From an uncultured Eubacteriales bacterium (lineage in GTDB: Bacteria > Bacillota > Clostridia > Peptostreptococcales > Anaerovoracaceae): DNA of 64,000 bases. The notes beneath the pieces were generated by a model. The model searched no databases. It had not been told where the DNA came from and saw nothing but the letters and a program-made list of their open reading frames with translations. The position numbers and the translations under genes are program-made. Positions 273 through 64,000 of this stretch are shown here, piece by piece (the stretch's first letter is position 1; each line of letters opens with the position of its first letter). The DNA lies in NCBI GenBank assembly GCA_902786855.1, contig CADAEH010000012.1, forward strand, positions 472 to 64,471, read 5' to 3'.

Positions 273-704
273 TCACTCCAATTCCAGTAAAGATGCTCCG
301 GTTTTCAGCCAGTCTATTCCTCTCTTGATCCATGATTCAATCTCATCTATTTCGGATGGATCAACTCCAAGTTCGTCTCCTATGGCAATGATTTCTTCCC
401 GTTCGGCATTACTGTAATCATCATCGAGCCAGCACATATACAATGCTTGCATAAGAAACAGCATCTTTTCTTGCTTAGTAACAAACTGGATTGATAGCGG
501 GTACTCGTTTTCTGCTTGCCATATTTCGGTGTATGAAGCACCAACAATTTCCGCCATCCTATAGATATATCCTTCTTCGGCTGAAGTTTTGTTTTTATCA
601 CTTTCTGCGATACGGATCAACCCTCTTAAATAGTTTATTCGTGATTCCTCTGTCTTTATCACGTCTCTGATTTCAAGCAGTTTTTCTTGTTTGATCTGTT
701 CCAT
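273..704 (-). CDS. TerB-like (tellurite-resistance TerB / DjlA-N type) helical domain protein
   Basis: 143-aa ORF with a GAGGA RBS. It has two TerB-style halves with acidic helices (YLRGLIRIAESDKN..AEEGYIYRMAEIVG and LYMCWLDDDYSNAEREEIIAIGDELGVDPSEIDEI). Motifs read by eye only. Confidence 0.55.
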   Translation of the reverse strand: MEQIKQEKLLEIRDVIKTEESRINYLRGLIRIAESDKNKTSAEEGYIYRMAEIVGASYTEIWQAENEYPLSIQFVTKQEKMLFLMQALYMCWLDDDYSNAEREEIIAIGDELGVDPSEIDEIESWIKRGIDWLKTGASLLELE

Positions 705-719
705 ATTATCCTCTGCGTT

Positions 720-1889
720 TTATGCAATCACCAGGAGTGCTCCGTCCTCTGTTTCGACAAAGTTTTCCTCAGAAGATGTCAGTTTGCCCAAATACTGATC
801 AAAATTCAAATACTCCATTTCAGGTATTTTGTCTGTAAGCAGATTGCTGAACATCATATTATCCAATTGCAGTCTCGAGGATAAAACTGTTGAATCAAGA
901 ATATCTTTTTGCTGTTTAAGAGTTAGATCCATGTATTCTAATGTCAGGGCTGTTTCAAGCCTTGATTGGAAGCTTTCTTCACCTATATCTGCTATCACCT
1001 TGATCCAGGAATTATATGCTGCTGGTAATTCACCCTTTTCATATAGATATCTTACCGAATAAAACTGCACTTCTTGTGCAAATGGATTTGTCAGTCCGAA
1101 AATGATATTACATGCAAGTTCATCGTCAACATTGCCGGCCTGAAAATCAATCCTTACGCGCTCCAGAAACGGCTGCATTTTATTCAAATGCTCTGGTATT
1201 TGATGCATTGTCGATGGTCTCTGCTCAAGATTTTGTAAAGTCTGCATATCTGTTCTGATCTGATTATAATAACCATCGAACTGCTGACGGTAATCGTTCA
1301 TCAGGTTCCATCCGATCTTCTGATCCAATGCAGATATTTGCTTTGAAATATCCGATAATGTGCTCAACACTTTCGTAAATCCAGCAATTGATATTCCAAT
1401 ATTCAATATCCCGAAAGCGCAGTTAAGCCAGGTAATAGCTTGCAGACCATTTACCATATTATTTAACTGATTTATCTGCTGAAGACTTATATCAGCTTTA
1501 TCATTTAGTATACTAACACTTTGATTCACGTCATAGAGTTCAGTCATCATCGATGACATTCCCTGCTTAATCTCAAGTGTATCCGCGTGGATAAGATCGA
1601 GATCCTTAATTATCTCCACGCCTTGCTTCTTTAGAACTTTGAGGCTTCTATTTGCTTTATTCACACCTTTCTGAATAAAAACAGACTGGACATTATTTCC
1701 AAGAGAAGATATTAAAGTCAGCGGGCCCAAAGGACTGCCTTGACTAGTTGCCTGAGCGACGGGCTTAACAAGTTCAACTAGTCTTCCATCTGGATATCGC
1801 ACTCCACCGCTGCTGATTACTGCTTCACCGGCTTTAACAAGCCTCATAGCCTTCTTTGATAGTTTAAATGCAAGTACTATATCAGCCAT
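720..1889 (-). CDS. hypothetical protein, coiled-coil rich with one central hydrophobic segment
   Basis: 389-aa ORF with an AGGAGA RBS; the start lies 12 nt after the upstream stop. Q/N/L-rich heptad-like stretches flank the hydrophobic segment ITWLNCAFGILNIGISIAGF. No family recognised. Confidence 0.7.
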   Translation of the reverse strand: MADIVLAFKLSKKAMRLVKAGEAVISSGGVRYPDGRLVELVKPVAQATSQGSPLGPLTLISSLGNNVQSVFIQKGVNKANRSLKVLKKQGVEIIKDLDLIHADTLEIKQGMSSMMTELYDVNQSVSILNDKADISLQQINQLNNMVNGLQAITWLNCAFGILNIGISIAGFTKVLSTLSDISKQISALDQKIGWNLMNDYRQQFDGYYNQIRTDMQTLQNLEQRPSTMHQIPEHLNKMQPFLERVRIDFQAGNVDDELACNIIFGLTNPFAQEVQFYSVRYLYEKGELPAAYNSWIKVIADIGEESFQSRLETALTLEYMDLTLKQQKDILDSTVLSSRLQLDNMMFSNLLTDKIPEMEYLNFDQYLGKLTSSEENFVETEDGALLVIA

Positions 1890-1901
1890 TTTTTAGTTCT
1901 C

Positions 1902-2525
1902 CTAATTTATTTCCTTGATCTCACAATAACGAATATAAGTAGAAAGCAATATATACTTAAAATAATAATCAATCACTTCAGTAGAAAAAGGCTTATGGTC
2001 TTTGTAAAATGTACTCCATCCATTCTTCTCCCATTCTTCACTCAGGCGCTTTAAAGTAATCTTGCGATTCAAGATAAATGCAATCGCTTCAGGTGAAATC
2101 TCTGCAGTTACATAACGCACATTTTTCTCTTTGCCGCTATTCAAAATATTAGTGATGATGCGTAAATAGTATACTAGTATTTCAAAAACTTTTTCATACG
2201 AAAAAGGGATCTCTCTCTTCGAACCACTATTGAGAGAAAAAACATCCTCTACCCTGCTCTTGATATTGCTCATGATGGAGTCCATGGCTTTATCAAACTT
2301 ATTATTCTTCGCAAGATGATCCTTACTTATATAGCACCTCAAGGTAGACAAAAGTAAACTGTCATAACTCCTGTAACCACTTCCATGTGTAGCGTTGCAC
2401 ATTGTGGTTATAAGATCATTTTTATCAATTGTTATGTTGCTCCCCGGGATAGTGAATTCTTCTATTTCTTTTTCACGGGAAAGGATGTAGCTGCAGTATT
2501 CTTCAAATATCATATCTTGACCCAT
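1902..2525 (-). CDS. hypothetical protein (first gene of the TerB cassette)
   Basis: 207-aa ORF in AT-rich sequence. A long-loop hairpin lies upstream (end of the lipoprotein gene) and the next gene starts 12 nt downstream. No motif recognised. Confidence 0.65.
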   Translation of the reverse strand: MGQDMIFEEYCSYILSREKEIEEFTIPGSNITIDKNDLITTMCNATHGSGYRSYDSLLLSTLRCYISKDHLAKNNKFDKAMDSIMSNIKSRVEDVFSLNSGSKREIPFSYEKVFEILVYYLRIITNILNSGKEKNVRYVTAEISPEAIAFILNRKITLKRLSEEWEKNGWSTFYKDHKPFSTEVIDYYFKYILLSTYIRYCEIKEIN

Positions 2526-2718
2526 ACCATCCTATTTTCAATGTCATACACAATTATTATAACATTGTTCAAACGTCGGGCGTAGCAATTATGTCATATC
2601 AAATAACCGAAAGTCATATTATAAAACACGGGAGGCGGCTGCCAATCAAATTGCGACCTCAATTGATATCGGTTGCCGTCTCCCACATATTCTTGATTTA
2701 TGCTAGTTAAAACTTCTT

Positions 2719-3522
2719 TTAGTCGATTTTTGTTAATGCTTCGATTATCGCTGCTTCCAACTCTTTCTGCTGTGTAGCTGTAAGGCTGTCTGATGTTCTT
2801 ACAATGCATGTACCGATTACTTCATGTGAACCTGATGCTGTAATTGTTCCGTCAAAACCCGCAAGATATTCTTCTCTTTTTATCGCCTCTTCCGCGGTCT
2901 TATAGACTTCTATACTACCACCGCCATCGGTCCCGGCCTCGATGATATCGTTGTCCATATACGAATGATCAACAAGCGGACTTGAGAAGTATACCTGAGC
3001 TGTGTAGCCTCCATCCTTGTGCAGGTTTCCATTTGGATCGTGATCCTCTGTCGCAGCGGCAATTCCATCAACATCTTTCACCGTCTTCAAACACTTGATT
3101 ACGTATGCTTCCTCCGGTGCATTTACTAGCTCATACTGCTTTATGCTGTCAGATAAAGCTTTTGTTGCATCCTTCAATGACTGCAACTGATCTACATATG
3201 TAGTTTTCTTCAGTTCCTCTGTTGCTGCATTGATTTCATCTACGCTCTTTGGCTCCTTCGGAGCATCAAATTCGATTGCATTCGCATCAGAGATAGCGGT
3301 CTGCAGTGCAGGTTTTAGTGTATCGTCAAGAGCAGGCCTCTCATCATCTACAACCGCCTGTGCCGCCTCAACATCAGCATCACGTTCCTCAAGTTCTGCC
3401 TGGATCCTGACTATCTCAGCATTGAATGCTTCCTCAGCAGCCACTTCTTCTTCTGATTTTGCGCAGCTAACCAAAGCCAACATAAGTATAAACGCTATCG
3501 TAACCGCTATGACTTTCTTCAT
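2719..3522 (-). CDS. lipoprotein, unknown function
   Basis: Signal peptide plus lipobox (MKKVIAVTIAFILMLALVSC). This is followed by an acidic helical linker and a conserved-looking C-terminal domain (DPNGNLHKDGGYTAQVYF...GTDGGGSIEVY). Confidence 0.75.
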   Translation of the reverse strand: MKKVIAVTIAFILMLALVSCAKSEEEVAAEEAFNAEIVRIQAELEERDADVEAAQAVVDDERPALDDTLKPALQTAISDANAIEFDAPKEPKSVDEINAATEELKKTTYVDQLQSLKDATKALSDSIKQYELVNAPEEAYVIKCLKTVKDVDGIAAATEDHDPNGNLHKDGGYTAQVYFSSPLVDHSYMDNDIIEAGTDGGGSIEVYKTAEEAIKREEYLAGFDGTITASGSHEVIGTCIVRTSDSLTATQQKELEAAIIEALTKID

Positions 3523-3563
3523 TATATGTACCTCCAGTTTTACAGATTATTTCGAGAGCCATT

Positions 3564-3971
3564 TCATTCATCAAGACATATTTTCTCGAACATTTTATCA
3601 AGCAGATCATTCTTAACTTCCGCATCAGCAGATATCTCGTCAATAAACAGCAACATACTGGCTACCGAGATTTGCTCGTCAATTAAGGCTCGTTCTTCCT
3701 GCAATTCTTCTAGTCGTGCTCTAAGTAAAGTCTCGTTCATTCTATCCACCTTCTCTAGCACAAACACTATGCTTTCAACAGGTATTCCGATCCTCCTTAG
3801 CAAAAGTATTCTCTTGGCCCTTCTGACAGCCTCGTCATCATACAGCCACTCTTTTCTGCCCCCAGAATTGCGTACTGTCGGATGCAACAGTCCTTTTCTG
3901 TCGTAATATCTTAATGCATTCACTGTAATTCCTGTGATTTCAGTGACTTCCCGGATCGTATTCAGTGACAT
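3564..3971 (-). CDS. MerR-family transcriptional regulator
   Basis: N-terminal MerR HTH (IREVTEITGITVNALRYYDRKGLL). I prefer the ATG at 3971, which has an AAGAGAGG RBS; the track ORF starts at 3998. Confidence 0.8.
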   Translation of the reverse strand: MSLNTIREVTEITGITVNALRYYDRKGLLHPTVRNSGGRKEWLYDDEAVRRAKRILLLRRIGIPVESIVFVLEKVDRMNETLLRARLEELQEERALIDEQISVASMLLFIDEISADAEVKNDLLDKMFEKICLDE

Positions 3972-4344
3972 TGCATACCTCTCTTTCCAACTATACATCT
4001 CGTTGTTACGACGAGGTCAATGCCATATTTGAAACACTCTAATTGTTTGTAATTACCCCTCCCTTCTTCACAGCTCCTCGTCATAAGAACGTGTTCCTAT
4101 AACAGGCGCTGTAATTTCTGCGAATTCTTTCATTGCAAAAGGAAAACAGTAGGCATGACGTCTTATGTCATTACCCACTGTTTCTATGGTAGTGAAGGCT
4201 ATACTTGAACCAGCGGTAGACACGTCTTATAGGATCCCTATAACGCATATTCGCTATGGAAAAAGGCTTTTTATTCTCTTTTTCTTGGCATCAAGTGATG
4301 ATTTAGCCCAAGTTTTTTAACGGTTGTTTATCGGGACGATTCAA

Positions 4345-4385
4345 TAAAAAACTGATGTAGATACCTTACAGAGCATCTGCACCAG
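4345..4385 (-). terminator. rho-independent terminator after the macrodomain gene
   Basis: On the minus strand, CUGGUGCAGAU - 12-nt loop - AUCUACAUCAG (two G-U pairs) is followed by a U7 tract. It lies 33 nt past the stop at 4418. Confidence 0.6.
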
Positions 4386-4417
4386 TTTGGGTGTCTAGCG
4401 AAATCCGCGACGTACTG

Positions 4418-5215
4418 TCATTTATCTTTTCCTTTGTCATCTTCTTTAACTAGTTCCACAACAGCTTTTTTCAAAGCATTTCCTAGGATTTCATCAAGAC
4501 CGTTATTTTGAGCAATCTTCTTTCCTACTTCCAAGATTCCATCCAGATTTTGCGGATTGTTAAGGAATACCATGGCTTTCTCCATAGCATAGTCCCCCCA
4601 TTTCTGAGCGATATCGGCTCCTTGCTCCAGTATTTTTTCCCCTAAAGGCTTTACTCTCTCATTTTTTCCTAGCACATATGCCTGATCTATCATTTCAGTC
4701 ATTTCTATACCCATCTGCCTGATTCTGTCTGTAGCTCGCATACCATACACGACCAAAAAAACTTTAGTAAGAGTATTTGTAGCAACATAATTCTTAATGC
4801 TTTCAAATGCAATTTTCAGAGCAGAATCAAGGTTGAAGTGGTTATTTCCTGCAGCCAAAAGCGGAATAGCAATAGATTCACACCCCATTATATCCGCTAG
4901 TTTTAACGAAGAAAGATAAGCTGAGCTAAGTTTGCCATATTCGCCGCTTTTGCCGCCTTTCCACTTAGGGGTGACTGCATGTATTATATATTTTGCGTCC
5001 AAATTGAAGCCCAGGGTAGGAACTGCAGTACCTACTCTCACATAATGGTAGCGTTTCAAACTTTCCTTGCAGGCTTTGGTCAGTTTTCTTCGTCCAGCTC
5101 TTTCAAAGATTGCTTTTGATGTACCATGTCCTTCCTCAAGCAGTGGGTTGGCAGGAAGAACGATAGCATCCACTTCCATATTGCAGATATCATTTCTAAT
5201 TACTTCAAATTCCAT
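4418..5215 (-). CDS. macrodomain protein with about 95-aa helical C-terminal extension
   Basis: Divergent macro motifs: DAIVLPANPLL..GHGTSKAIFERAG, later SIAIPLLAAGNNHF. GGAAGGAAG RBS. Confidence 0.6.
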   Translation of the reverse strand: MEFEVIRNDICNMEVDAIVLPANPLLEEGHGTSKAIFERAGRRKLTKACKESLKRYHYVRVGTAVPTLGFNLDAKYIIHAVTPKWKGGKSGEYGKLSSAYLSSLKLADIMGCESIAIPLLAAGNNHFNLDSALKIAFESIKNYVATNTLTKVFLVVYGMRATDRIRQMGIEMTEMIDQAYVLGKNERVKPLGEKILEQGADIAQKWGDYAMEKAMVFLNNPQNLDGILEVGKKIAQNNGLDEILGNALKKAVVELVKEDDKGKDK

Positions 5216-5257
5216 ATGATGTACTTCCTTCCATATCGACGAATGTAATCCATTAAC

Positions 5258-6922
5258 TCATTTCAATCTTCTCGCTATATCATAGATATCCTGCTTCATC
5301 TCATAGAACCCAATCACCGGCATTCCACCACCCATGTTAGTCCTCATAGCAAACTCAAGATCTACGAAGTTGGTCTGATAAAAAGCTGAGATCTCAGGGC
5401 CTTTTAGTGTCGCGCTGTATGCATCGATGGCATCATGATATTGAGGTATCATTTTAAGCATTCCGGTATTCATTTTCCACTCTGGAATTACCGGAAGATT
5501 TAATGCATCAATGTATTCAAGTTTACCTTTTTTTGCATCTGAATTCCAGTTTCTGAATTCCTCTCTAAGGATCATAAGAATCCTTCCAAGCTTGTTCTTA
5601 CCATCCCACTTTCTAGTGTCATAAACTCTTTCGTCATCTGGAGCAAGACCTATTCCCCACACTTTGTCATATGGAGAACATTCAGCCAAGACAGCATTGC
5701 CTGTAGACAGCAGTTCTTTCATAAGATTAGGATTCTGCACGAATTTTGCTTTGACACCACGCCTAACTATAGTAGAGCTTATTCTGGTCCATAGCTTGTC
5801 ATCGAAGTTATCAAAATGTGTTCGTCCAATTTTCTTTGCTTCAGCAGGATCCTCTGTTTTCATTACCTGATCCGCAAGATCATATTGTCTGAATATCATG
5901 AGTTTGTGATACATCATAAATTGCTCGACAGAAACGAAATGCTGCCCTGCATACTCGAAATCAGCTCTATACCAATTACTCAGGCAACCATATTCATCGT
6001 ACTCATGCCAAAATCCAATGAATTCAGGATGCTTCGCTTTCCTCTTTTCCAATTCTCCCTCTTTTGCATAGAAGTCGCCAAAGTTTCTGGCAAATTCATC
6101 ATAGTTGTAAGTCTTTCCCGGCTTTGTAAGTATTGCAAAATCGATGCTCTTAAATAGAGCATCCACATTTTCTCCATCAAGTCTGAAGTTCTTTATAACA
6201 TCATAGAAGATATCAGACACTATCGCAGCATCATTATTAAAAGCACCACATCCGAAAGCTCCCAGGACCAGGCGCTTGTATCCATTAACAGCAGCTGCTA
6301 CCAGGATCCCTTCAATACGGTGATACATCATCTTTCTGTATTTCACCTTATCGTAGCTGACACCAAGATCAAGTATAGGTGCAGCACAGGTAATTACAGA
6401 TACAACCGTGGTGTGATCCAGATAGTTGTAGTCAGCATCCTTAAAAATCTCTACTTTTGGAATGATGATTACTGCATCAGACCCTTTCCTTGTATGAAGG
6501 CTTCTGTTGTATTCATAATACCAGGAGGAATCCTCACTCTCTAATGCTATAAGCAGAGTGCTCTGTCTGCACAGATCTTCTTCCTGAGCTTTGGCTCCGC
6601 GCCTTACGCCGCCTCCAATATGCACGGGATTAGCCAGGTTAAGCACCAGAACTTCATCATCTGGTTTTTTTTCGGCTATTTCCCTTGCCAGGGTAAATGA
6701 ATCTGTATTGACAACTGAATAGCTGCATCTACCTTCAAGGTGCGGATGGTCAAATTCTTTGGAGTTACGAAAGCCTTCCAGGACTCTTGGTTCGTACACC
6801 TCCGCAATGAGCATTTGTTCCAGATCCAGTTTGAGATTGACTCTTCCTGATTCATGCTCATAGTATCCACGTTCGCAAACATCCAAGGTATCCTGTAGTA
6901 TGTCAATATTATGGTTTCTCAT
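5258..6922 (-). CDS. fusion of a bacterial PARG-like macrodomain (TIGR02452/DUF2263 type) and a NADAR (YbiA/DUF1768) domain
   Basis: The N-terminal half carries the PARG signature GGG-X7-QEE (IGGGVRRGAKAQEEDLCRQS). The C-terminal half carries NADAR-type motifs (FWHEYDEYGCLSNWY..FVSVEQFMMYHK..KVWGIGL). I chose the ATG at 6922; the track start at 6952 is a TTG. Confidence 0.7.
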   Translation of the reverse strand: MRNHNIDILQDTLDVCERGYYEHESGRVNLKLDLEQMLIAEVYEPRVLEGFRNSKEFDHPHLEGRCSYSVVNTDSFTLAREIAEKKPDDEVLVLNLANPVHIGGGVRRGAKAQEEDLCRQSTLLIALESEDSSWYYEYNRSLHTRKGSDAVIIIPKVEIFKDADYNYLDHTTVVSVITCAAPILDLGVSYDKVKYRKMMYHRIEGILVAAAVNGYKRLVLGAFGCGAFNNDAAIVSDIFYDVIKNFRLDGENVDALFKSIDFAILTKPGKTYNYDEFARNFGDFYAKEGELEKRKAKHPEFIGFWHEYDEYGCLSNWYRADFEYAGQHFVSVEQFMMYHKLMIFRQYDLADQVMKTEDPAEAKKIGRTHFDNFDDKLWTRISSTIVRRGVKAKFVQNPNLMKELLSTGNAVLAECSPYDKVWGIGLAPDDERVYDTRKWDGKNKLGRILMILREEFRNWNSDAKKGKLEYIDALNLPVIPEWKMNTGMLKMIPQYHDAIDAYSATLKGPEISAFYQTNFVDLEFAMRTNMGGGMPVIGFYEMKQDIYDIARRLK

Positions 6923-56923: not shown

Positions 56924-57736
56924 CTATCTGAAGAACTTAAGGAATTTCTTAGCGACCTTTACCTTTTTGTATTTATAGGTGACAGTTCTTGAACTGGTTC
57001 TGGTCTTGCCGTCACTGGATGTATATACTTCAGTCGAATCGGATTGCTTGACGTTTTTCTTCTTATCGTATTTATACTTATATGTAGTTACTGATGTCGC
57101 TTTTCCGGAATCGCTGCCATCGACCCACTCTTCTGTTCTGACTATTTTAGTCGGATTGCCTTTTTTATCATATTTGTAAGAATAATTTGACCAGCTTGAG
57201 TAGGTTTTATCAGTGTATTTTACGAAAGTGATATCACCCTTCTTGTTATACTTATAACTGTTTACCCCATTGCCGTCAGCGAATGTAAATACACTTTCTT
57301 TTTCCTTTCCGTTCTTATAGAACGAAACAGTATAAGTACCTGCCAGTTTATTGTACTGATCGTATTCGTACTGTTTTACCGGCAGACCTTTTTTGTTGTA
57401 TTCATACTTGTATGAATAGGCATAATCAAGTTTTCCGTTTTTATCATAACTTGTACCTGATGTAATATATCCCTTTTTATTGCGGGTATAAACCGTTTTA
57501 CTGCCATCAGAATAAGTTATAGTTTTTGCCAGACCATTTTTAAAATATGTGATATTGGTAGTTGAGGTAGAGCCTATGCTTCCGTCACTGTTCTTATAAG
57601 TAATAGTATTTGATGTAGTGACATACTTTGTTGTCTTGGATGCTGCGCTTGCCTCCTGTGTGAATGCGAACGGGATCGCAAAAACAAGGGCGAATGTGAG
57701 TGCCAGCGACAGATATCGTTTTACATGTCTCTTCAT
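56924..57736 (-). CDS. secreted repeat protein (MORN-variant / YwqK-like repeats)
   Basis: A signal peptide (ALVFAIPFAFTQEASA), then iterated Y.Y.KNG/KKG...Y motifs (YKYEYNKKGLPVKQYEY, YKYNKKGDITFVKY, YKYDKKGNPTKIV). Confidence 0.5.
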   Translation of the reverse strand: MKRHVKRYLSLALTFALVFAIPFAFTQEASAASKTTKYVTTSNTITYKNSDGSIGSTSTTNITYFKNGLAKTITYSDGSKTVYTRNKKGYITSGTSYDKNGKLDYAYSYKYEYNKKGLPVKQYEYDQYNKLAGTYTVSFYKNGKEKESVFTFADGNGVNSYKYNKKGDITFVKYTDKTYSSWSNYSYKYDKKGNPTKIVRTEEWVDGSDSGKATSVTTYKYKYDKKKNVKQSDSTEVYTSSDGKTRTSSRTVTYKYKKVKVAKKFLKFFR

Positions 57737-57917: not shown

Positions 57918-59063
57918 TTACTCATCAGATCTTGTATTTATTTCTACTCCGTTTACACTTACACTCTCGCCTGCAGGTACCAGGATGTATGTCACCCCGT
58001 CTATCTGTTTTGTCTTTATCCTCAGTGCAGTTTCAGGATCTGTTATGATCCTTGTTTCAGGAGTCCTTACCTCAAATGATCTCTTCTGTATAAGATTTCC
58101 AATATTAAATGTTCCTGCTCCGTCAAAACGTTTCTCTACCGTTTCACCGAAATTTCTGATTTTGTCATCGGATATCCCCTTGTCCGACAGGATGTCCTCG
58201 ATGTCCCCGATGTATACTTCAGCTATCTCTGAAGGACTTTCTTCGTGGATCTCTTCTGCCTTTGCTGACAGCTTTGCCTGAAGAGATGTCACGATATCCA
58301 GACTGCAATCCTTTCCGAGGGCTTCTGCAAGAGTAAGGTTGAAGGTTTCTTTCTGGACATCTGCAGCCATAGGAGGATTTTCTATCATAAACAAAGATGT
58401 GATCAGTTCACCATGATTCCCGGACGTGCTCTTTGTATAATACTGGACCTGATAGATATCAGCGCTGCCTTCATCCAACACAGGGAATACAAATCCGACC
58501 GAAGGAGCCCCGAGGATCGTCCCCGTTGAAATGCCTCTGAACTCCTGCTGTCCGGGCTGATATTGAAGGGCAGCTTTAGACGTCTTTACCGGGCATATCG
58601 CACAGATGAAGTATTCGAACTGAGCGTTTGATTCTTCAGACCACTCTTCATTTCTGACTTCTTTTGTTCTGAGATCGTATGTATCCGCCGCAAGGATCAT
58701 CACGTAGCTTTCGCCATCCATATCAAGGGATCCTATGATCCTCTGATACAGCAGATCGCGCATGTTTTCATCTCTCAGCTGAGTGCTTTTGAGTGCCATG
58801 AGGAGTCTGTGTTCATCGCTGTTCCCCACTTTGTCTATCGGGAATTCCAGGGATATCTGATTCCTGCCGGCTTTGCCGGACAGTACCTTTTTAAGGATGG
58901 AAGCATACATTTCGCGTTCTTCCGACTTCATATCGAGCACCGGTATTTCCATCGTTGTGACGATCTCACCGGCGGCATTGACATAGCATCCGTATATACT
59001 CCTGAAATTACTCAGGGTCGTATCTATTCTTTTTCTTATTCTTCTGATTTCTTCAGGTCTCAT
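57918..59063 (-). CDS. DUF4317-family protein
   Basis: Start taken at MRPEEIRRIRKRID (59063). The N-terminal pattern ...IYGCYVN....EI......L....EEREMYASILKKVLSG matches my recollection of DUF4317 proteins of Clostridia. Confidence 0.55.
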   Translation of the reverse strand: MRPEEIRRIRKRIDTTLSNFRSIYGCYVNAAGEIVTTMEIPVLDMKSEEREMYASILKKVLSGKAGRNQISLEFPIDKVGNSDEHRLLMALKSTQLRDENMRDLLYQRIIGSLDMDGESYVMILAADTYDLRTKEVRNEEWSEESNAQFEYFICAICPVKTSKAALQYQPGQQEFRGISTGTILGAPSVGFVFPVLDEGSADIYQVQYYTKSTSGNHGELITSLFMIENPPMAADVQKETFNLTLAEALGKDCSLDIVTSLQAKLSAKAEEIHEESPSEIAEVYIGDIEDILSDKGISDDKIRNFGETVEKRFDGAGTFNIGNLIQKRSFEVRTPETRIITDPETALRIKTKQIDGVTYILVPAGESVSVNGVEINTRSDE

Positions 59064-59248
59064 CGATTCTCCATTCCGGCTGCAAAAAAGCGGCACTATA
59101 TAGTATCCAGTACAGTTTACCATATAGCACCGCTTTGAAATAAGCTTCAATCAGCATTTCCTATGCTGTCATCGTCGTGTTTTCACTTGTTCACAGACAG
59201 GAGACGGAGAACCGTCCCCTGTTTCACTGTTTCATCCTGTCTCCAGTT

Positions 59249-59283
59249 AAAAATAGGGTACTCAACCTCAGTTGAATACCCTA
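59249..59283 (-). terminator. rho-independent terminator after the GG-leader PepSY gene
   Basis: On the minus strand, UAGGGUAUUCAAC-UGAG-GUUGAGUACCCUA is followed by U5. Confidence 0.7.
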
Positions 59284-59316
59284 CAGCTGCAATTATGCTG
59301 AATTCAGTATGTTTTA

Positions 59317-59580
59317 TTAGTCTCTGTCCTTTTCAAAATCGAGGATAGCGCCTGTCTCAGCATCTATATCGAACTCGTACTCAACGCCGCCCTTATAGAA
59401 TTCTACCTCATATACCTTGCGGCCGTTCTCGTAATCCAGCTCGACCTTCTTTACAAGATCTACCTGATCCTTCTTGAGGTTAACATGCTGCAGTGCCTTT
59501 GCAAGTGCTTCATCCTGTGTGAGGGTGCCGCCTACAACATTTTCCATCATCTCATCGCTGATTTTCTTCATATCTGCCAT
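59317..59580 (-). CDS. double-glycine-leader precursor whose mature part is a PepSY domain
   Basis: The leader is MADMKKISDEMMENVVGG, with hydrophobic residues at -4, -7, -12 and -15 and no Sec-type signal. The mature 69 aa are PepSY-like (LTQDEALAKALQHVNLKKDQV...GRKVYEVEFYKGGVEYEFDIDAETGAILDFEKD). A GGGAGGA RBS lies 7 nt upstream. Confidence 0.75.
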   Translation of the reverse strand: MADMKKISDEMMENVVGGTLTQDEALAKALQHVNLKKDQVDLVKKVELDYENGRKVYEVEFYKGGVEYEFDIDAETGAILDFEKDRD

Positions 59581-59650
59581 TGATTTGTCCTCCCTGGTGT
59601 ATTCGTTATATATACATATGTGAATTAGTTCGAATATAAATCCGAATCAT

Positions 59651-59679
59651 ATTGTACCAAAAGCGTTTCAATTGAGCAA
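59651..59679 (-). promoter_or_regulatory. candidate sigma-A promoter for the PepSY precursor gene
   Basis: On the minus strand, TTGCTC - 17 nt - TACAAT with TG at -15/-14 (TGGTACAAT). It lies about 70 nt upstream of the ATG, in the 195-bp gap after the ABC gene. Confidence 0.35.
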
Positions 59680-59775
59680 TTAAATTCTCAATTTGGCTAT
59701 TATAATTTTGCTTTTTTACATGAATTGTCGCTTCTCCGGTCTGAAAGTTAGAGATGGGGGCCTTTCTGAAGACTG

Positions 59776-61959
59776 TCACATGTCCAGTCTCTGCCGGGCG
59801 ATCAGGTCCGCAAAGAATCCGTTCTTTTCGATCAGTTCATCATAAGTGCCTTCTTCGATTATCGTTCCCTGATCCATCACCAGGATGCGGTTGCAGCCTC
59901 GTATGGTCGACAGCCGGTGTGCGATAACGATGCGGGTGCATTTCAGCTCGCCCAGAGCTTCAGCGATCTGCTTCTGGGTGAGATTGTCCAGAGCAGAAGT
60001 AGCCTCATCAAAAATAAGAATATGCGGTTTGATCGCCACAGCCCGGGCGATCATCAGTCTCTGCTTCTGTCCTCCGGATATGCCGCCGTCTCCTTCGGAT
60101 ATCTGTGTCTGCATGCCCATCGGCATATCGCGGATGTCATCCGCGATTCCGGCGATTTCAGCAGCTTCCCATGCATCCTCGAGGCTCATCATTGGATCGG
60201 AAATGGCGATATTGGAGTAAATATCCCCCTGGAAAAGGCTGCCGCTCTGGGTCACGGTACCGATCCGCCGTCTGAGCGAGCGAAGATCCAGACCTGTCAG
60301 ATCTCTGCCGTCATAATAGATCGCACCTATTTCCGGAGTCTCAAAACCAAGCAGCAGACGTATCAGTGTGCTTTTCCCACAGCCGGTGGTACCGACTATA
60401 CCGATATAATCTCCGGCGTTTATCTTCAGATCCATGTCCTTGATAACGTATGGCATATCAGGACTGTAACGGAATGATACATTGGAAAGCTCTATATCCC
60501 CTTTCAGATCAAGTACCATGCTCTTGTTCTCGGAAGACTCCGGCTGAGCTTCGAGGATCGGCTTTGCCATATCAAGTACAGGCCTTATACTTGCGACAGA
60601 CAGACCTACTCCCGCCAGAGATGTAAAGGCTGAAGTCACTGAGCCGAAGGCTGTATTGAATGCTATATATTCTGAAGGCGAGACTCCGCTCCTGGTAGCA
60701 AAGTAGAACAGCATCACCGTTCCGATCAGAGAGACCGCGGTGGTTATAGCCTTACCTGTACGAATAACAGCCGGCGGGTTATACTTGAGCTGCGCTTCAT
60801 CTGCATATACATTTGCCCATTTGGCAAAAGCGCGCTTTTCTGCTCCGGAGAGGCGGATCTTCTGCACACCGTTTATCAGCGACAGACTTACGCTGTCCTC
60901 GTCTGCGCTCTTTTTCAGGATTTTCCTGCTGTGCCGCATCTGTGCCAGACCGGTAATAACGCCTACCAGTGAGCCGGTCAGAATGATCAGCAATGCCGGC
61001 AGCACCAGCGCAGGGGCAAAATGTATGATCTGTGTAATGTACAGCAGTGACAGAAACGCGGAAAGCCCCATAGAGAAAACACCCCCGAGCAGTGTTCCGC
61101 ATATCTGACCTACAGAGTTATACCGGCTCGCAAGCTCACCTGATGTAAAATTCCTGAAGAATCCGGCCGGCAGATTCATGATGCGCATCATCATCGCCGC
61201 GTCCAGTGAAAATGTGGTCTTGATACTGATCCGGTCCATCATCAGCTGGCGCCCGATAAGGATAAGCCGCGAAGTCAGGATAGCTGATATCATAAAGACC
61301 GCAGTTCCGGCAAGCAGGGTCACATTTGAGCTTTCGAGCACAAATCCCGTAATTGCACGTGTGATATCGGTCACCAGCATTCCTATCAGTGTCACCGCCA
61401 GTGACAGGATAAACATCAGAATATAATCTCCCGGTTCCAGACAGTTCTTGAGATATATCATCAGGTCTGGAATATCTATCTTCCGGAGAGGCAGCGGACG
61501 GTAAAAGCATAGAGCGTCCTCAGTCAGCTGCTCTGCAGTCTTTCGGTTGATCCTGATTCTCTCTCCGCTTTTCGGGTCGCGGTAGCTGTACCCATAAAAA
61601 CTGCCGGGCAGCAGAGCGACGGGTGCCCCGCTGTCGCGGAGAAACGCCAGCATCGGTCCCATAGCATCCTTGTACCACCCCTGTTCCAGCCTGACGGCGC
61701 GGCGCATTATTCCATGCGGGCGCAGGCAATACTCCAGCTGCTCGTCCGGATCAGTGACCTCTTCAGGGACATTTGCCGGTTCACAGTGATAGTATTTAAG
61801 GATCTCGTCTATAGCTTCCTTAGCGTATATATGATTATCTTTCAGACGGTCTGCCTGCCGCGATCCCATTACCGTAAAGGCGATGTTAAGCAGAGAGTCG
61901 TCCATGGCTTTCTGATCTGCCAGCTTGCGCTGGGCGATCTGTTCTTCAAACCATCCCAT
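59776..61959 (-). CDS. ABC exporter (TMD-NBD) with Cys-less N-terminal C39-like domain; NHLM/PCAT-partner type
   Basis: A roughly 170-aa N-terminal domain without an obvious catalytic Cys/His pair, and six TM segments. Walker A: GTTGCGKST. Signature: ISGGQKQRL. Walker B: ILIFDEATSALD. Confidence 0.75.
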   Translation of the reverse strand: MGWFEEQIAQRKLADQKAMDDSLLNIAFTVMGSRQADRLKDNHIYAKEAIDEILKYYHCEPANVPEEVTDPDEQLEYCLRPHGIMRRAVRLEQGWYKDAMGPMLAFLRDSGAPVALLPGSFYGYSYRDPKSGERIRINRKTAEQLTEDALCFYRPLPLRKIDIPDLMIYLKNCLEPGDYILMFILSLAVTLIGMLVTDITRAITGFVLESSNVTLLAGTAVFMISAILTSRLILIGRQLMMDRISIKTTFSLDAAMMMRIMNLPAGFFRNFTSGELASRYNSVGQICGTLLGGVFSMGLSAFLSLLYITQIIHFAPALVLPALLIILTGSLVGVITGLAQMRHSRKILKKSADEDSVSLSLINGVQKIRLSGAEKRAFAKWANVYADEAQLKYNPPAVIRTGKAITTAVSLIGTVMLFYFATRSGVSPSEYIAFNTAFGSVTSAFTSLAGVGLSVASIRPVLDMAKPILEAQPESSENKSMVLDLKGDIELSNVSFRYSPDMPYVIKDMDLKINAGDYIGIVGTTGCGKSTLIRLLLGFETPEIGAIYYDGRDLTGLDLRSLRRRIGTVTQSGSLFQGDIYSNIAISDPMMSLEDAWEAAEIAGIADDIRDMPMGMQTQISEGDGGISGGQKQRLMIARAVAIKPHILIFDEATSALDNLTQKQIAEALGELKCTRIVIAHRLSTIRGCNRILVMDQGTIIEEGTYDELIEKNGFFADLIARQRLDM

Positions 61960-61972
61960 AAGCCCCCTCCTT

Positions 61973-64000
61973 TCAATCGCTCGCTATCAGCCGCGCGTAG
62001 GTACCGTTGTTCGCCATGAGCTCTTCATGAGTACCTCGCTCTGCTACCTGTCCGTGATCCAGGACTATGATCTCATCACAATCCCTTATCGTAGACAGAC
62101 GGTGCGCGACAACTATACATGTGATGTTGCGGTCGCTGACCGCTTTTACCAATTCATATTCTGTCCTGGCATCGAGTGCTGAAGTCGCTTCATCCATGAT
62201 AAGGATAGTCGGATCCTGGGCGAGCACACGGGCTATCTCAAGCCTCTGCCGCTGTCCGCCGGAAAAGTCCTTGCCGTTCTCTGCCAGTTTGTAGCGGAAA
62301 CCGCTGCTTCTTGCCATGATATCGTCATAGATCTGTGCATCCCTTGAAGCCAGGATCATTTCAAAATCTTCGATGGATGTGTCCCACATCTTGATGTTGG
62401 CTGCGATGCTGTCATCAAAAAGGATTATTTCCTGGCTGACTACAGCCACTGAGCCGGTCAGTATGCTCCGGTCGATCTCATTCGCCGGTTTTCCGTCAAA
62501 CAGGATCTCTCCGCTCCATGGCTGGTTGATCCCTGAGATCAGTTTAGCGATCGTGGATTTGCCGCATCCGGAAGCCCCCACCAGAGCGATCTTGTCCCCA
62601 GGTTTTATATGCATGGAAAAGTCGCGTATCAGAGGTTCTTCCAGGCGCGAATATCCGAAGGTCACGTTTTTCAGTTCTACCTCACCGGAAAGTTTCTGAT
62701 AGTCCAGACTTTCGTCAAAAGGGGTATCAGAAATTGCAGGATCATCAGGATAAAGCATCACATCTTCTACACGCTCCATGTCGGTACGCATTTCCTGGAT
62801 GCTCTGTCCGGCCTCGATCAATCGCGTCGCCGGTACCATGAAGGAACCCAGAAATCCCTGGAACATCAGTATCGAACCAAGTGAGAATCTTCCCTGCATG
62901 GCAAGGAGTACTCCGAGGATCATCACCAGTGCGTCGGCCACTGTAGAAAGCGCTGCAGGAACAGCCCCGAGATAGCGGTTCAGACGGGCATATCGTACAT
63001 TCTGAGCATTAACAGATGCCTGATATCCGGACCATTTCTGGAAGTAACCGTTTTCCGAACCGCTGGCCTTGATCGTCTCTATCATCTGTATGCAGGAGAT
63101 GGTAGCTGCAGCAAGCTTACCGGTATCACGCATCTGGACACGCGTGATATTGATCCGTTTTGCAGATATTATCTGAGATACCAGAAGGTTGATGACGATC
63201 GTTGCTATACCGATCATTGTCAGCACAACGCTCATGCGCAGCATCAGAACAAGATATACGATCATCATGATCGTGTTCATGACCAGCGGAGCGATAGTAT
63301 TTACAAGTGTTGAAGCGATAGAAGCATTGGTCTCCTGCCGCTGAAGGATATCGCCCGACAGACGCTGGGAGAAGAAATCCATCGGGAGACGCAGTATCTT
63401 CCACATATATTCACTGCTGCCCACGACAGCCATCTTGCCGTTGATCCTGAGTGAGTATATGGCCAGCAGCCAGCCTGCAGCGATCTGCACGGTACCGACC
63501 AAAACCATCAGACCAAGAAACGGATACAGGAGTTCAGTATTTTCCCCTGTCAGCAGATGGTCCATAAAGAAGCGTGAAAAAGCAGGGTTTATTATTCCAA
63601 ACAGACTGCTTGCAAAAGTCGTAAGCATCACAAAGAGCAGTGCATAGCCGGTCCCTTTCATGTGTTTGCCTACAAACTCGAGCACACTTTTCTGCTTTCC
63701 TGAGGCTTCAAAATCCGGACCCGGGGTGATCTGGATGCATATGCCTGTAAAGGCCTGGTCGAGTTCATCCAGTGTGATGCGGAGATCTCCCCTTGCCGGA
63801 TCATTGATATATGCATACTTGCCTCTGAATCCCGTCAGAACTACGAAGTGATTGAAATTCCAGTGCAGTATGCAAGGCAGCACAACATCGCTGCGCAAAG
63901 CATCAGGCTCGCAGCTGAAACCCTGGGCATCAAAGCCATAATTCCTCGCCGCTTTCAGCATGTTTCTGGCATTGGACCCATTTCGTGAGACTCCGCAGTC
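61973..64000 (-). CDS. peptidase-containing ABC transporter (PCAT; C39 peptidase - TMD - NBD), 5' end outside the window
   Basis: The frame stays open upstream of the track Met to position 64000 (..DCGVSRNGSNARNMLKAARNYGF). C39 motifs HWNFNHFVVL and INDPARG are present. Walker A: GASGCGKST. Signature: FSGGQRQRL. Walker B: ILIMDEATSALD. The catalytic Cys region lies off-window. Confidence 0.8.
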   Translation of the reverse strand, partial: DCGVSRNGSNARNMLKAARNYGFDAQGFSCEPDALRSDVVLPCILHWNFNHFVVLTGFRGKYAYINDPARGDLRITLDELDQAFTGICIQITPGPDFEASGKQKSVLEFVGKHMKGTGYALLFVMLTTFASSLFGIINPAFSRFFMDHLLTGENTELLYPFLGLMVLVGTVQIAAGWLLAIYSLRINGKMAVVGSSEYMWKILRLPMDFFSQRLSGDILQRQETNASIASTLVNTIAPLVMNTIMMIVYLVLMLRMSVVLTMIGIATIVINLLVSQIISAKRINITRVQMRDTGKLAAATISCIQMIETIKASGSENGYFQKWSGYQASVNAQNVRYARLNRYLGAVPAALSTVADALVMILGVLLAMQGRFSLGSILMFQGFLGSFMVPATRLIEAGQSIQEMRTDMERVEDVMLYPDDPAISDTPFDESLDYQKLSGEVELKNVTFGYSRLEEPLIRDFSMHIKPGDKIALVGASGCGKSTIAKLISGINQPWSGEILFDGKPANEIDRSILTGSVAVVSQEIILFDDSIAANIKMWDTSIEDFEMILASRDAQIYDDIMARSSGFRYKLAENGKDFSGGQRQRLEIARVLAQDPTILIMDEATSALDARTEYELVKAVSDRNITCIVVAHRLSTIRDCDEIIVLDHGQVAERGTHEELMANNGTYARLIASD

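Follow-up and report, generated by a model that had tools for sequence, protein, structure and literature searches.

Peptidase-containing ABC transporters, or PCATs, are usually viewed, and mined, as exporters of bacteriocins or pheromones. A related arrangement is found in HlyB, which serves the secretion of RTX proteins with a C-terminal signal and carries at its N-terminus a catalytically dead domain of C39 fold, the C39-like domain (CLD), which binds the substrate. The gene considered here is annotated in genomes only as 'PepSY domain-containing protein' or 'YkoI'. Among the closest described systems is PCAT1 of Clostridium thermocellum, a homodimer with two active peptidases, whose substrate CtA consists of a 24-aa double-glycine (GG) leader and a cargo of 66 aa, which passes in unfolded form through the transmembrane cavity, the specificity coming from leader positions -4, -7 and -12 only (PMC6959990). 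In the export of NHLP/Nif11 peptides, a three-gene transporter layout comprises the families TIGR03794, TIGR03796 and TIGR03797 (Haft et al. 2010, PMC2887384), and the cargo genes are often adjacent to it and also scattered elsewhere in the genome (PMC2887384). The precursors of that system consist of a long folded leader, which bears GG close to its C-terminus, and a short modified core. In Synechococcus elongatus, the small GG-motif proteins EbfG1-4 are exported by the C39 peptidase transporter PteB and have a non-antibiotic role in the biofilm matrix (PMC4997328). The PepSY fold itself is represented by CD1622 of C. difficile, YpmB of B. subtilis and the C-terminal domain of YpeB, and ordinary Clostridial PepSY proteins carry 2-11 tandem repeats behind a Sec, lipoprotein or membrane-anchor segment.

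The locus described here lies on a stretch of 64,000 nt (hereafter the window) from an uncultured Eubacteriales bacterium of the Anaerovoracaceae (assembly GCA_902786855.1, contig CADAEH010000012.1), and its features are collected in Table 1. From the combined analysis it probably encodes, in the last gene of a four-gene export cassette, the precursor of a secreted single PepSY domain, which would be exported and cleaved by a PCAT and might have an extracellular binding role. The cassette would run, in order, from a 138-aa HlyD-like accessory protein through a PCAT with a predicted active C39 peptidase and a second ABC half-transporter (ABC2) with a C39-like domain to the PepSY gene behind its GG leader. 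As with PCAT1 and CtA, a Clostridial PCAT is combined with a small, operon-encoded GG-leader cargo, and the sizes of the two cargos are close, namely 66 aa there and 69 aa here; the sequence-only reading had treated PCAT cargos as usually short and this one, by implication, as unusually large, which the comparison with CtA does not bear out (PMC6959990). CtA is not detectably related to the PepSY cargo, being absent from the matches of the PDB sequence search up to an E of 10. Unlike the PCAT1 homodimer, the present exporter pairs a TIGR03796-type with a TIGR03797-type subunit, of which the first has a C39 domain predicted to be active and the second a C39-like domain, and a miniature HlyD-like protein accompanies them. 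The layout is shared with NHLP/Nif11 export, but modification enzymes are absent here, the HlyD component is cut down to 138 aa, and a short leader precedes an exported folded domain. EbfG1-4 resemble the PepSY cargo in small size, GG motif and transporter type, and their role is non-antibiotic, as that of the PepSY cargo may be; they belong to another phylum, and the paper on them reports no known folded domain comparable to PepSY (PMC4997328). Whereas ordinary Clostridial PepSY proteins are anchored repeat proteins, this one consists of one domain behind a GG leader.

Table 1. Features of the PepSY export cassette in the window (coordinates on the 64,000-nt stretch)
Feature	Position	Strand	Remarks
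PCAT of TIGR03796 type, with C39 peptidase, transmembrane and ATPase domains	61973..64000, runs past window end	minus	PF03412, PF00664, PF00005
Second ABC half-transporter (ABC2), 727 aa, TIGR03797 type	59776..61959	minus	TIGR03797
Spacer between ABC2 and PepSY gene, 195 nt	59581..59775	minus	read directly
Weak sigma-70-like site in spacer	59633..59660	minus	9/12 consensus positions
Shine-Dalgarno GGGAGGA	59588..59594	minus	7 nt 5' of ATG
PepSY precursor gene	59317..59580	minus	87 aa, start = MADMKKISDEMMENVVGG
Double-glycine leader (MADMKKISDEMMENVVGG), residues 1-18	59527..59580	minus	TIGR01847 and conserved pattern
Mature cargo, a single PepSY domain, residues 19-87, 69 aa	59320..59526	minus	PF03413, AF2 model
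PepSY gene stop codon	59317..59319	minus	
Intrinsic terminator, 14-bp stem and U-run	59253..59284	minus	starts 33 nt past stop; terminator scan

The 87-aa product had been proposed, from its letters alone, to carry a complete PepSY domain, and the PF03413 profile matches it strongly at 56.4 bits (E 3.7e-15; gathering cutoff 24 bits), over profile positions 2-58 of 60. Since the match starts at residue 20 and extends to residue 81, the PepSY domain begins immediately behind the GG motif. In the AF2 model (pLDDT about 88), an alpha-helix (residues 22-32) is packed on a four-stranded antiparallel sheet (42-51, 54-63, 66-73 and 79-86), as the PepSY fold prescribes, and the best Foldseek matches of this model are 4exr, 2gu3 (YpmB), 9a5z and 5boi (YpeB), with CD1622 also matched. 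The mature domain has a mass of 8.0 kDa, a pI of 4.5 and a GRAVY of -0.73, contains no Cys, and has 18 Asp or Glu among its 69 residues, of which D49, E58, E67, D71, D73 and D85 are invariant in the family. The intact precursor has a mass of 9.96 kDa. The closest ordinary PepSY domains share about 45-55% identity with the mature domain (L043-L084).

The leader had been described as a textbook GG leader, and its hydrophobic positions are indeed V at -4, M at -7, I at -12 and M at -15, with GG at -2/-1, acidic residues in between, no Sec core and no hydrophobic segment (leader GRAVY -0.26); the AF2 model leaves residues 1-17 without order (pLDDT below 50). The bacteriocin leader model TIGR01847 (bacteriocin_sig) scores 15.5 bits on residues 4-18, against a curated cutoff of 15.7, and 11 of 26 family members match it at E up to 0.1, all weakly, as is expected of a model only 15 positions long. 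Matches of TIGR03798 to the leader region are likewise weak (7 of 26 members, best E 0.028), and a search of the family members with TIGR03793, the NHLP precursor model, gave no match. NHLP and Nif11 precursors place GG near the C-terminus of a long NHase- or Nif11-like leader, while here it occupies residues 17-18 of 87. About 140 GG-PepSY homologues were found, and in all 120 that were listed and inspected both G17 and G18 are invariant and the pattern L/I-S/N-D-x-E/M-L/M-E-x-V/I-x-GG is kept. Cleavage is predicted to occur after G18. Homologues with a Sec signal or without the GG motif, which would have spoken against the reading, were not present among these 120.

Outside the GG-PepSY family the usual route to the envelope is a different one. 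When the family profile was compared with 1.84 billion representative sequences, 9,026 matches were obtained at E up to 0.001, and the best 150 of them were all multi-repeat proteins, because summed repeat scores outrank those of single domains. Among these 150, an N-terminal hydrophobic segment is present in 130 and a genuine GG leader in none; thus the GG leader takes the place of the export signal usual in PepSY proteins. The nearest relatives that lack GG contain several PepSY domains and have a Sec or membrane-anchor N-terminus.

The two ABC genes had been read as the NHLM-type pairing of a C39-peptidase transporter with a Cys-less partner, and typing by TIGR03796 and TIGR03797 agrees with this, the second model lying slightly below its cutoff. 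The window end removes the first 50 residues of the PCAT, placing the catalytic Cys about 70 nt beyond it, and the incomplete protein scores 830 bits with TIGR03796. The reverse complement of the window, however, is identical to contig L001 from position 1094 onward (0 mismatches over 14,684 nt), and the full-length protein of 726 aa encoded there reaches 903.6 bits against a cutoff of 853.3. It contains the catalytic motifs QLEALEC28G, NH102FVVL and D118P; hence the Cys on which the earlier claim hinged is present, and Q22 (the oxyanion residue), C28, H102 and D118 occur unchanged in 6 of 6 orthologues, the residues being assigned by motif and not by structural superposition.

ABC2 scores 694.0 bits with TIGR03797, about 2% short of the cutoff of 709.4, covering model positions 10-685 of 686 at about twice the score of the next-best family, and it is treated here as a putative divergent relative of TIGR03797. 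As in that family, it has an ABC permease and ATPase and no active peptidase. Its N-terminal domain of about 170 aa, supposed earlier to be a degenerate Cys-less peptidase domain, is related to C39 at the level of the fold and not of the sequence. Foldseek places its AF2 model (pLDDT 73) closest to the PCAT1 peptidase domain, the HlyB CLD (3zua) and LahT150 (6mpz), each with a probability of 1.0, and matches 8dck as well, while ABC2 shows no match to the Pfam C39 profile PF03412 and hhalign finds no sequence similarity between its N-terminus and the C39 domain (probability 0.1), so that only the structure comparison reveals the relationship. In the family alignment, the catalytic positions show neither a conserved Cys nor a conserved His. 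Judged by the model and at the fold level only, the domain appears to be of C39-like fold and to have lost the catalytic Cys and His. It shares with the HlyB CLD a C39 fold that is catalytically dead and stands at the N-terminal end of an ABC exporter, but differs from it in being paired with a C39 subunit predicted to be active, in a Gram-positive GG-leader system, and in showing no detectable sequence similarity. Just beyond the window, L001 also encodes a single-pass HlyD-like protein of 138 aa, and the four-gene cassette occupies positions 513..5777 of that contig. TIGR03794 scores the 138-aa protein at 23.7 bits (cutoff 156.2; E 1.9e-5) over model positions 1-49 of 421 only, and it is thus, as far as profile scores can tell, a putative reduced HlyD analogue and no member of TIGR03794, whose full length is about 420 aa.

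A candidate promoter of its own had been assigned to the cargo gene, but the site matches 9 of 12 consensus positions, and as one such site is observed where shuffles predict 1.9, its occurrence does not exceed chance. A riboswitch or small RNA in the spacer was rejected, as an Rfam search of the 195 nt gave no match at E up to 1. In a metagenome variant (L004), an IS30-like gene sits inside the spacer. The claim of a clean terminator is well borne out by the hairpin and U-run, since the 77-nt stretch containing them folds at -22.5 kcal/mol (z = -3.5) and none of 200 shuffles folds as well. The DUF4317 gene farther along (57918..59150) was considered as a member of the system and rejected, as it lies 3' of the cargo gene in L001-L005 and L007 only and is absent from that position in the other cassettes.

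The association of the PepSY gene with its exporter was surveyed across genomes, and the outcome was mixed. About 34 intact GG-PepSY genes occur in species-level genomes, nearly all of them of rumen or gut Clostridia, with the leader and GG kept; the intact genes among the species-genome loci L005-L042 carry the GG leader, and protein identity ranges from 61 to 100% across families. The gene lies directly 3' of ABC2 in 11 loci (L001, L005-8, L012, L016, L019, L020, L085 and L143), which supports the expected adjacency to a PCAT, but no PCAT lies within 8 kb of about two thirds of the GG-PepSY genes elsewhere. The exporter of these orphan genes is assumed to be encoded elsewhere in the genome. 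Some orphans adjoin other GG-leader genes, and no conserved partner is found beside them; the neighbours vary and include a surface protein with MBG, Flg_new and LRR domains, an amylase, YfhO, a hybrid kinase and TPR proteins. In the comparison of exporters with cargos, for which 88 loci were sampled, the 11 PepSY-linked exporters form one clade with a bootstrap of 79/100, a moderate support in a tree built on a 175-aa domain. Neither these 11 loci nor the window contain a GG-leader ORF other than the PepSY gene, which, with the single clade, supports the notion of dedicated export. Flanks outside the 11 cassettes are not conserved. Sister exporter clades adjoin genes of GG-leader proteins with LysM, CW_7, SH3 (SH3_3) or Zn-ribbon domains, and as those with LysM, CW_7 and SH3_3 flank them in this way, whole-domain cargo is a trait of the exporter family; among the whole-domain cargo types of related transporters, PepSY stands beside LysM, CW_7 and SH3.

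Several other readings of the same gene have been considered. The mature domain could be a bacteriocin-like competition factor that harms or disarms neighbours, for example by blocking their wall-remodelling enzymes or proteases, and is encoded in an unusual class II locus. Bacteriocin export is the classical task of GG leaders and PCATs, and the leader weakly matches several bacteriocin leader models; in addition, related exporters have polymorphic tandem arrays of cargo genes like those of conflict systems, the cassette is mobile with variable flanks, and its transporter genes have repeatedly been deleted (P0029, P0070, L033, L039). Nevertheless, we regard this as unlikely. Class II bacteriocins are small cationic or amphiphilic peptides accompanied by an immunity gene, while this product is acidic, hydrophilic, Cys-free and globular, unlike the membrane-active members of that class; the 11 cassettes share no small membrane protein resembling an immunity factor, and the strong conservation across families stands against the hypervariability usual in conflict effectors. 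The earlier statement that modification enzymes, an immunity gene and a two-component system are missing nearby holds, none being present or conserved (the two-component system was looked for within about 5 kb in the window).

That last observation bears also on a second alternative, in which the PepSY domain would be a signal, or protein pheromone, for a membrane receptor, like the GG-leader peptides that induce competence or bacteriocins. Streptococcal PCATs export quorum-sensing peptides (10.1101/783472), the leader of one family member weakly matches BlpC, and a hybrid histidine kinase occurs near divergent orphan copies in L038, L040 and L042. We consider a signal highly improbable, as neither a two-component system nor an Rgg regulator is conserved by the 11 cassettes or lies within about 5 kb in the window, known pheromones are far smaller than an 8-kDa folded domain, and the histidine-kinase cluster may reflect generic homology only.

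There is likewise very little likelihood that the product is a secreted binder of Ca2+ or another cation through its carboxylates, after the fashion of lanpepsy, a lanthanide-binding PepSY protein with two such domains (PMC9988556). The best PDB sequence match, 9vy3 (E 9.7e-5), which is a protein of 153 aa with two PepSY domains and 8 entries, and the high content of Asp and Glu, several of them invariant, would suit such a role, but the invariant acidic residues belong to the generic PepSY consensus and make up no special motif, and no metal transporter is linked to the cassette. Moreover, we know of no lanthanide biology in rumen anaerobes. Lastly, that the GG-like N-terminus is a coincidence in a cytoplasmic or non-exported PepSY protein merely adjoining an ABC exporter, as the just sub-cutoff TIGR01847 score and the many homologues away from a PCAT might suggest, is scarcely credible, given that, amid varying flanks, the leader and GG persist in the 120 listed homologues and in about 34 intact genes of species-level genomes, the domain starts exactly behind GG, PepSY is otherwise extracytoplasmic (the signal or anchor segments of 130 of the 150 best-scoring relatives), exporter and cargo co-cluster in one clade, and orphan copies adjoin other GG-leader genes.

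For the preferred reading, a PepSY precursor secreted by its own cassette, the steps can be sketched from homology and gene order. The acidic, disordered leader would become an amphipathic helix, with residues -4, -7 and -12 docking in the groove of the C39 domain. The unfolded 69-aa cargo would enter the transmembrane cavity, as CtA does in PCAT1, and the C39 peptidase would cut after Gly18. ATP binding would then expel the cargo, which, once outside, would fold as an acidic PepSY domain of 8 kDa that begins with TLTQDE. The 66-aa cargo that lies unstructured in the PCAT1 cavity makes such export plausible (PMC6959990). On this basis, export and cleavage of the precursor are strongly inferred. 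What the domain might do outside is a guess, namely that it may bind proteins and inhibit or modulate a cell-wall enzyme or a protease outside the cell; no gene for a target protease or hydrolase lies beside the cassette, and an inhibitor role is for this reason a conjecture.

GG-PepSY is a previously undescribed class of cargo for a known mechanism of secretion, and no paper was found that joins PepSY, LysM, CW_7 or SH3b with double-glycine export. The findings suggest that rumen Clostridia export whole small folded domains through such exporters, besides antimicrobial peptides. More tentatively, and with somewhat more doubt than confidence, a Sec-independent 'GG secretome' may be envisaged in rumen and gut Clostridia, in which a radiating clade of heterodimeric NHLM-type PCATs (active C39, C39-like domain and mini-HlyD) would have sub-clades specialised in PepSY, LysM, CW_7, SH3b, Zn-ribbon-like and Cys-rich cargo, the C39-like domain would select the cargo or leader and co-diversify with it, and the freed domains would act on the walls or wall enzymes of the producer or its competitors. 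As a naturally occurring minimal form of a domain with a poorly defined function, the free 8-kDa PepSY domain could serve as bait for PepSY partners, and the cassette, as a compact natural case of folded-domain secretion by a PCAT, is relevant to the engineered secretion of small proteins. If a conserved, folded and non-antimicrobial PepSY domain is the dedicated cargo of a PCAT, and the sister exporters carry LysM, CW_7 and SH3 domains, then secretome predictions based on signal peptides miss such proteins in abundant rumen Clostridia.

Near the end of the window, a short minus-strand ORF encodes a protein in which a PepSY domain follows a double-glycine (GG) leader. Its ATG, the earliest start codon following an in-frame stop, lies 7 nt 3' of the Shine-Dalgarno sequence GGGAGGA. 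At 56.4 bits (gathering score 24; E 3.7e-15), the Pfam PepSY model PF03413 matches residues 20–81, and since this match starts at residue 20, the domain begins straight after GG. In the leader, V, M, I and M occupy positions -4, -7, -12 and -15, respectively; four of its residues are acidic and it lacks a hydrophobic core, and the 15-position NCBIfam leader model TIGR01847 scores 15.5 bits on residues 4–18 against a cutoff of 15.7. The GG-leader PepSY ORF described in the sequence-only reading is thus confirmed. In an AlphaFold2 model computed from an alignment of 26 family members, residues 1–17 are disordered (pLDDT <50), while residues 19–87 form a helix and four strands (pLDDT ~88), for which Foldseek places only PepSY proteins at the top of its PDB matches (Clostridioides difficile CD1622, 4exr; Bacillus subtilis YpmB, 2gu3 and 9a5z; YpeB, 5boi). 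The mature cargo would comprise 69 aa (8.0 kDa, pI 4.5), is hydrophilic and contains no Cys. The 77-nt stretch with the terminator hairpin has a folding energy of -22.5 kcal/mol (z = -3.5), and no Rfam family was found in the cargo-gene region. The candidate site for the promoter proposed earlier (59633..59660), matching at 9 of 12 positions, does not rise above shuffled sequence, with one site found against 1.9 expected.

Features of the cargo locus and of related loci (L, homologous loci or contigs; P, protein search matches)
Feature	Location	Strand	Remarks
3,573-aa ORF	36159-46880	minus	single ORF
270-aa protein	56924-57736	minus	clear Sec signal peptide MKRHVKRYLSLALTFALVFAIPFAFTQEASA; Y/K/T/G-rich repeats; no Pfam family
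DUF4317 gene	57918-59150	minus	E 1.3e-96; directly downstream of cargo terminator
Terminator hairpin	59253..59284		14 bp and U-run; begins 33 nt past cargo stop codon
GG-PepSY ORF (cargo)	59317..59580	minus	87 residues; N-terminus MADMKKISDEMMENVVGG
ABC2, second ABC subunit	59776..61959	as cargo	727 aa; TIGR03797 694 bits vs cutoff 709.4, by far the closest family
PCAT, ABC subunit with C39 peptidase	61973..>64000	as cargo	PF03412 (C39) and TIGR03796 match; runs past window end
IS30-like (HTH_38) gene	L004:1301-2605		434 aa
mini-HlyD::PepSY fusions	P0029; P0070; L033:7569-8186; L039:~7844-8189		in frame
Surface proteins	L011:3866-7915; L014:3906-7904; L018:244-4395; L041:1788-7865		1,300-2,000 aa; directly 5' of orphan GG-PepSY
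Other GG-leader genes	L011:2791-3306; L013:10350-10550; L026:10498-10698; L028:851-1114, 10480-10680; L040:7349-7645, 8304-8633		within a few kb of orphan GG-PepSY
GG-ORF/exporter loci, examples	L089:10026-10247, 11887-12147; L087:1272-1601; L112:2430-2714; L088:4178-6993; L144:6650-9025		among L087-L164

Searching 5.8 billion proteins by word index yielded 140 homologues of 61–100% identity, nearly all 84–89 aa long. Among the matches listed, GG is present in 120 of 120, with G17 and G18 invariant, and the leader pattern (K/N)-(L/I)-(S/N)-D-x-(E/M)-(L/M)-E-x-(V/I)-x-GG is conserved, so the motif is retained across homologues, as the earlier claim needed. When one genome per species was scanned, 38 species-level genomes (L005–L042) had such genes, nearly all of them MAGs from rumen or gut that belong to Lachnospiraceae, Anaerovoracaceae and Oscillospiraceae/Ruminococcaceae; about 34 have an intact GG leader, and the remainder are truncated copies or deletion fusions. 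The remoter matches (L043 onward; best 150 of 9,026 in a 1.84-billion representative library) contain 3–11 tandem PepSY repeats, and 130 of these 150 have a hydrophobic stretch at the N-terminus (of signal-peptide, lipoprotein or anchor type), while none of the 150 has a true GG leader. Since these relatives depend on Sec or an anchor and lack the GG leader, a single-domain branch of an extracytoplasmic PepSY family appears to have exchanged its export signal for a GG leader. Source annotation calls the GG-PepSY proteins merely 'PepSY domain-containing protein' or 'YkoI', and no NCBIfam model covers them.

Two ABC half-transporter genes lie upstream of the cargo gene on the same strand. From position 1094 on, ENA contig L001 agrees with the reverse complement of the window without a single mismatch in 14,684 nt, and on this contig the PCAT gene is complete, encoding 726 aa that score 903.6 with TIGR03796 against a cutoff of 853.3. 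The catalytic Cys, whose absence beyond the window would have spoken against the sequence-only reading, is present as C28 in the motif Q22...C28 (QLEALECG), accompanied by the histidine of NH102FVVL and by D118P, all invariant in six orthologues. On L001 a fourth gene, encoding a 138-aa single-pass membrane protein (mini-HlyD), precedes PCAT; its first 60 residues match the N-terminus of the NHLM HlyD-like model TIGR03794 (E 1.9e-5, model positions 1–49 of 421), and it is, judging from this match, a drastically shortened accessory protein outside the TIGR03794 family. The N-terminal 170 residues of ABC2 show no sequence similarity to C39 (no Pfam match; hhalign probability 0.1), in agreement with the description of TIGR03797 as lacking a peptidase domain (Haft et al., PMC2887384). 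In an AlphaFold2 model of this domain (pLDDT 73 overall, ~80–87 for residues 45–170), the top Foldseek matches, at probability 1.0, are the PCAT1 peptidase domain, the HlyB C39-like domain (3zua, 8dck), LahT150 (6mpz) and 3b79; no conserved Cys occurs in the would-be catalytic helix, and the His position is also unconserved. The degenerate, Cys-less N-terminal domain proposed earlier for ABC2 thus holds, but at the level of fold only. A C39 fold without Cys and His indicates that the exporter pair combines one C39 domain predicted from its residues to be active with one dead C39-like domain.

The PepSY gene lies directly 3' of ABC2 in nine genome-derived loci (L001, L005–L008, L012, L016, L019, L020), in which mini-HlyD and PCAT precede ABC2 wherever the contig extends far enough. 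Flanks beyond these four genes are unrelated between loci, which is the signature of a self-contained cassette. Neither the 64-kb window nor the cassette loci contain any other ORF with the GG-leader pattern. A reverse survey, in which the ABC2 N-terminal domain was the query on metagenome contigs, gave 80 loci of related exporters, most of them from projects on the ruminant gut. A PepSY gene lies downstream in only two (L085, L143). In 42 there are other ORFs that follow a Shine-Dalgarno sequence and encode an acidic GG leader, frequently more than one in a tandem row. Of 79 such candidate ORFs, Pfam assigned 16 to LysM (best E 5.5e-17), nine to CW_7 (6e-32), two to PepSY (6.6e-14) and one to SH3_3 (3.6e-16), with weak Zn-ribbon-like matches for a few and none for the remaining ORFs. 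In the metagenome loci L087–L164, the mature parts of the GG-leader ORFs are complete domains (LysM, CW_7 x2 or SH3_3), small proteins of Zn-ribbon-like or Cys-rich type, or members of unknown families such as YQVVFSDTGLNRDSWFVSY... and the ~150-aa FSGEVISSGSFASQTGTSLN... family. One candidate (alignment A5) has a match to HTH_26 (E 2.4e-8), a DNA-binding domain of Cro/C1 type. This is odd for a secretion cargo; the leader call may be a false positive, or the protein may be a regulator. A neighbour-joining tree of 88 ABC2 N-terminal domains unites the 11 PepSY-linked exporters in one clade, which contains no other cargo type (bootstrap 79/100), and places exporters linked to LysM/CW_7 and to Cys-rich cargo in other clades. 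Cargo type thus appears to follow exporter lineage, which supports a dedicated pairing of PepSY with its PCAT/ABC2 lineage.

Roughly two in three GG-PepSY genes of the species genomes lack a C39 or ABC pair within 8 kb, and the neighbourhoods of these orphans vary. Several of them lie near other GG-leader genes, which are of LysM type (L013, L026, L028), SH3-like (L028) or of unknown types (L011, L021, L040); this suggests sets of several cargos that a PCAT at another place in the genome would serve. Such placement fits export in trans by a distant PCAT, for which scattered NHLP/N11P precursors provide a precedent (PMC2887384). In four genomes a large surface protein directly precedes the orphan; that of L018 carries MBG_2, Flg_new and BspA-type LRR domains. 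Four independent fusions of mini-HlyD to PepSY, each with a different junction, are deletions that removed both ABC genes. At the P0070 junction, the HlyD-like ...FDNEQIADNV... resembles the leader ...SDEMMENV.... The cassette has evidently often been gained, lost and disrupted. In L004, a metagenome variant whose PepSY protein is identical, the IS30-like gene is inserted between ABC2 and PepSY, in the same spacer as window positions 59581-59775. In the window as a whole, nearly every long ORF is on the minus strand and no tRNA gene was found. The DUF4317 gene keeps its position in L001–L005 and L007 and is missing beside the other PepSY cassettes, and is thus probably unrelated.

The machinery is of the same kind as the 'NHLM' PCAT systems (TIGR03794/6/7); the present form is Gram-positive, and its accessory protein is shortened. 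The size of the PepSY cargo is ordinary for a PCAT, and EbfG1-4/PteB offer a precedent for non-antibiotic GG cargo (PMC4997328). Full-text searches found no description linking PepSY, LysM, CW_7, Cpl-7 or SH3b to double-glycine or PCAT export, and neither PepSY nor LysM is mentioned in a 2026 survey of bacteriocins from rumen isolates.

Our observations concern the domains present, the catalytic residues, conservation of the leader, synteny of the cassette and the co-clustering of exporter and cargo; GG-dependent export of the cargo by the adjacent PCAT we regard as highly probable. Following the work on PCAT1 and LahT (PMC6959990, PMC6363468), the leader helix would dock into the C39 groove via -4, -7 and -12, and the unfolded 69-aa cargo would move into the transmembrane cavity, where it should fit, since the cavity measures ~15,000 cubic angstroms and the 66-aa cargo CtA fills ~9,000. 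Cleavage after GG would be followed by ATP binding, freeing the cargo outside, where it would fold. The dead C39-like domain of ABC2 might help to hold leader or cargo, like the HlyB CLD. Overall, the sequence-only interpretation is supported, with corrections that concern, among others, the promoter, the cargo size and the additional mini-HlyD gene, and with the C39-like domain recognised at fold level only.

By analogy with M4 propeptides, YpeB/SleB and YpmB/MreC, the free PepSY domain might bind and modulate an extracellular protease or wall enzyme, although we propose such an inhibitor or modulator role only tentatively; the peptidoglycan-binding modules that sister exporters would secrete point to the cell wall as its possible site of action. 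What appears to be new is that a complete and well-known folded domain, normally exported via Sec, is the cargo here, and that it seems to be one of a broader group of whole-domain GG cargos of rumen Clostridia.
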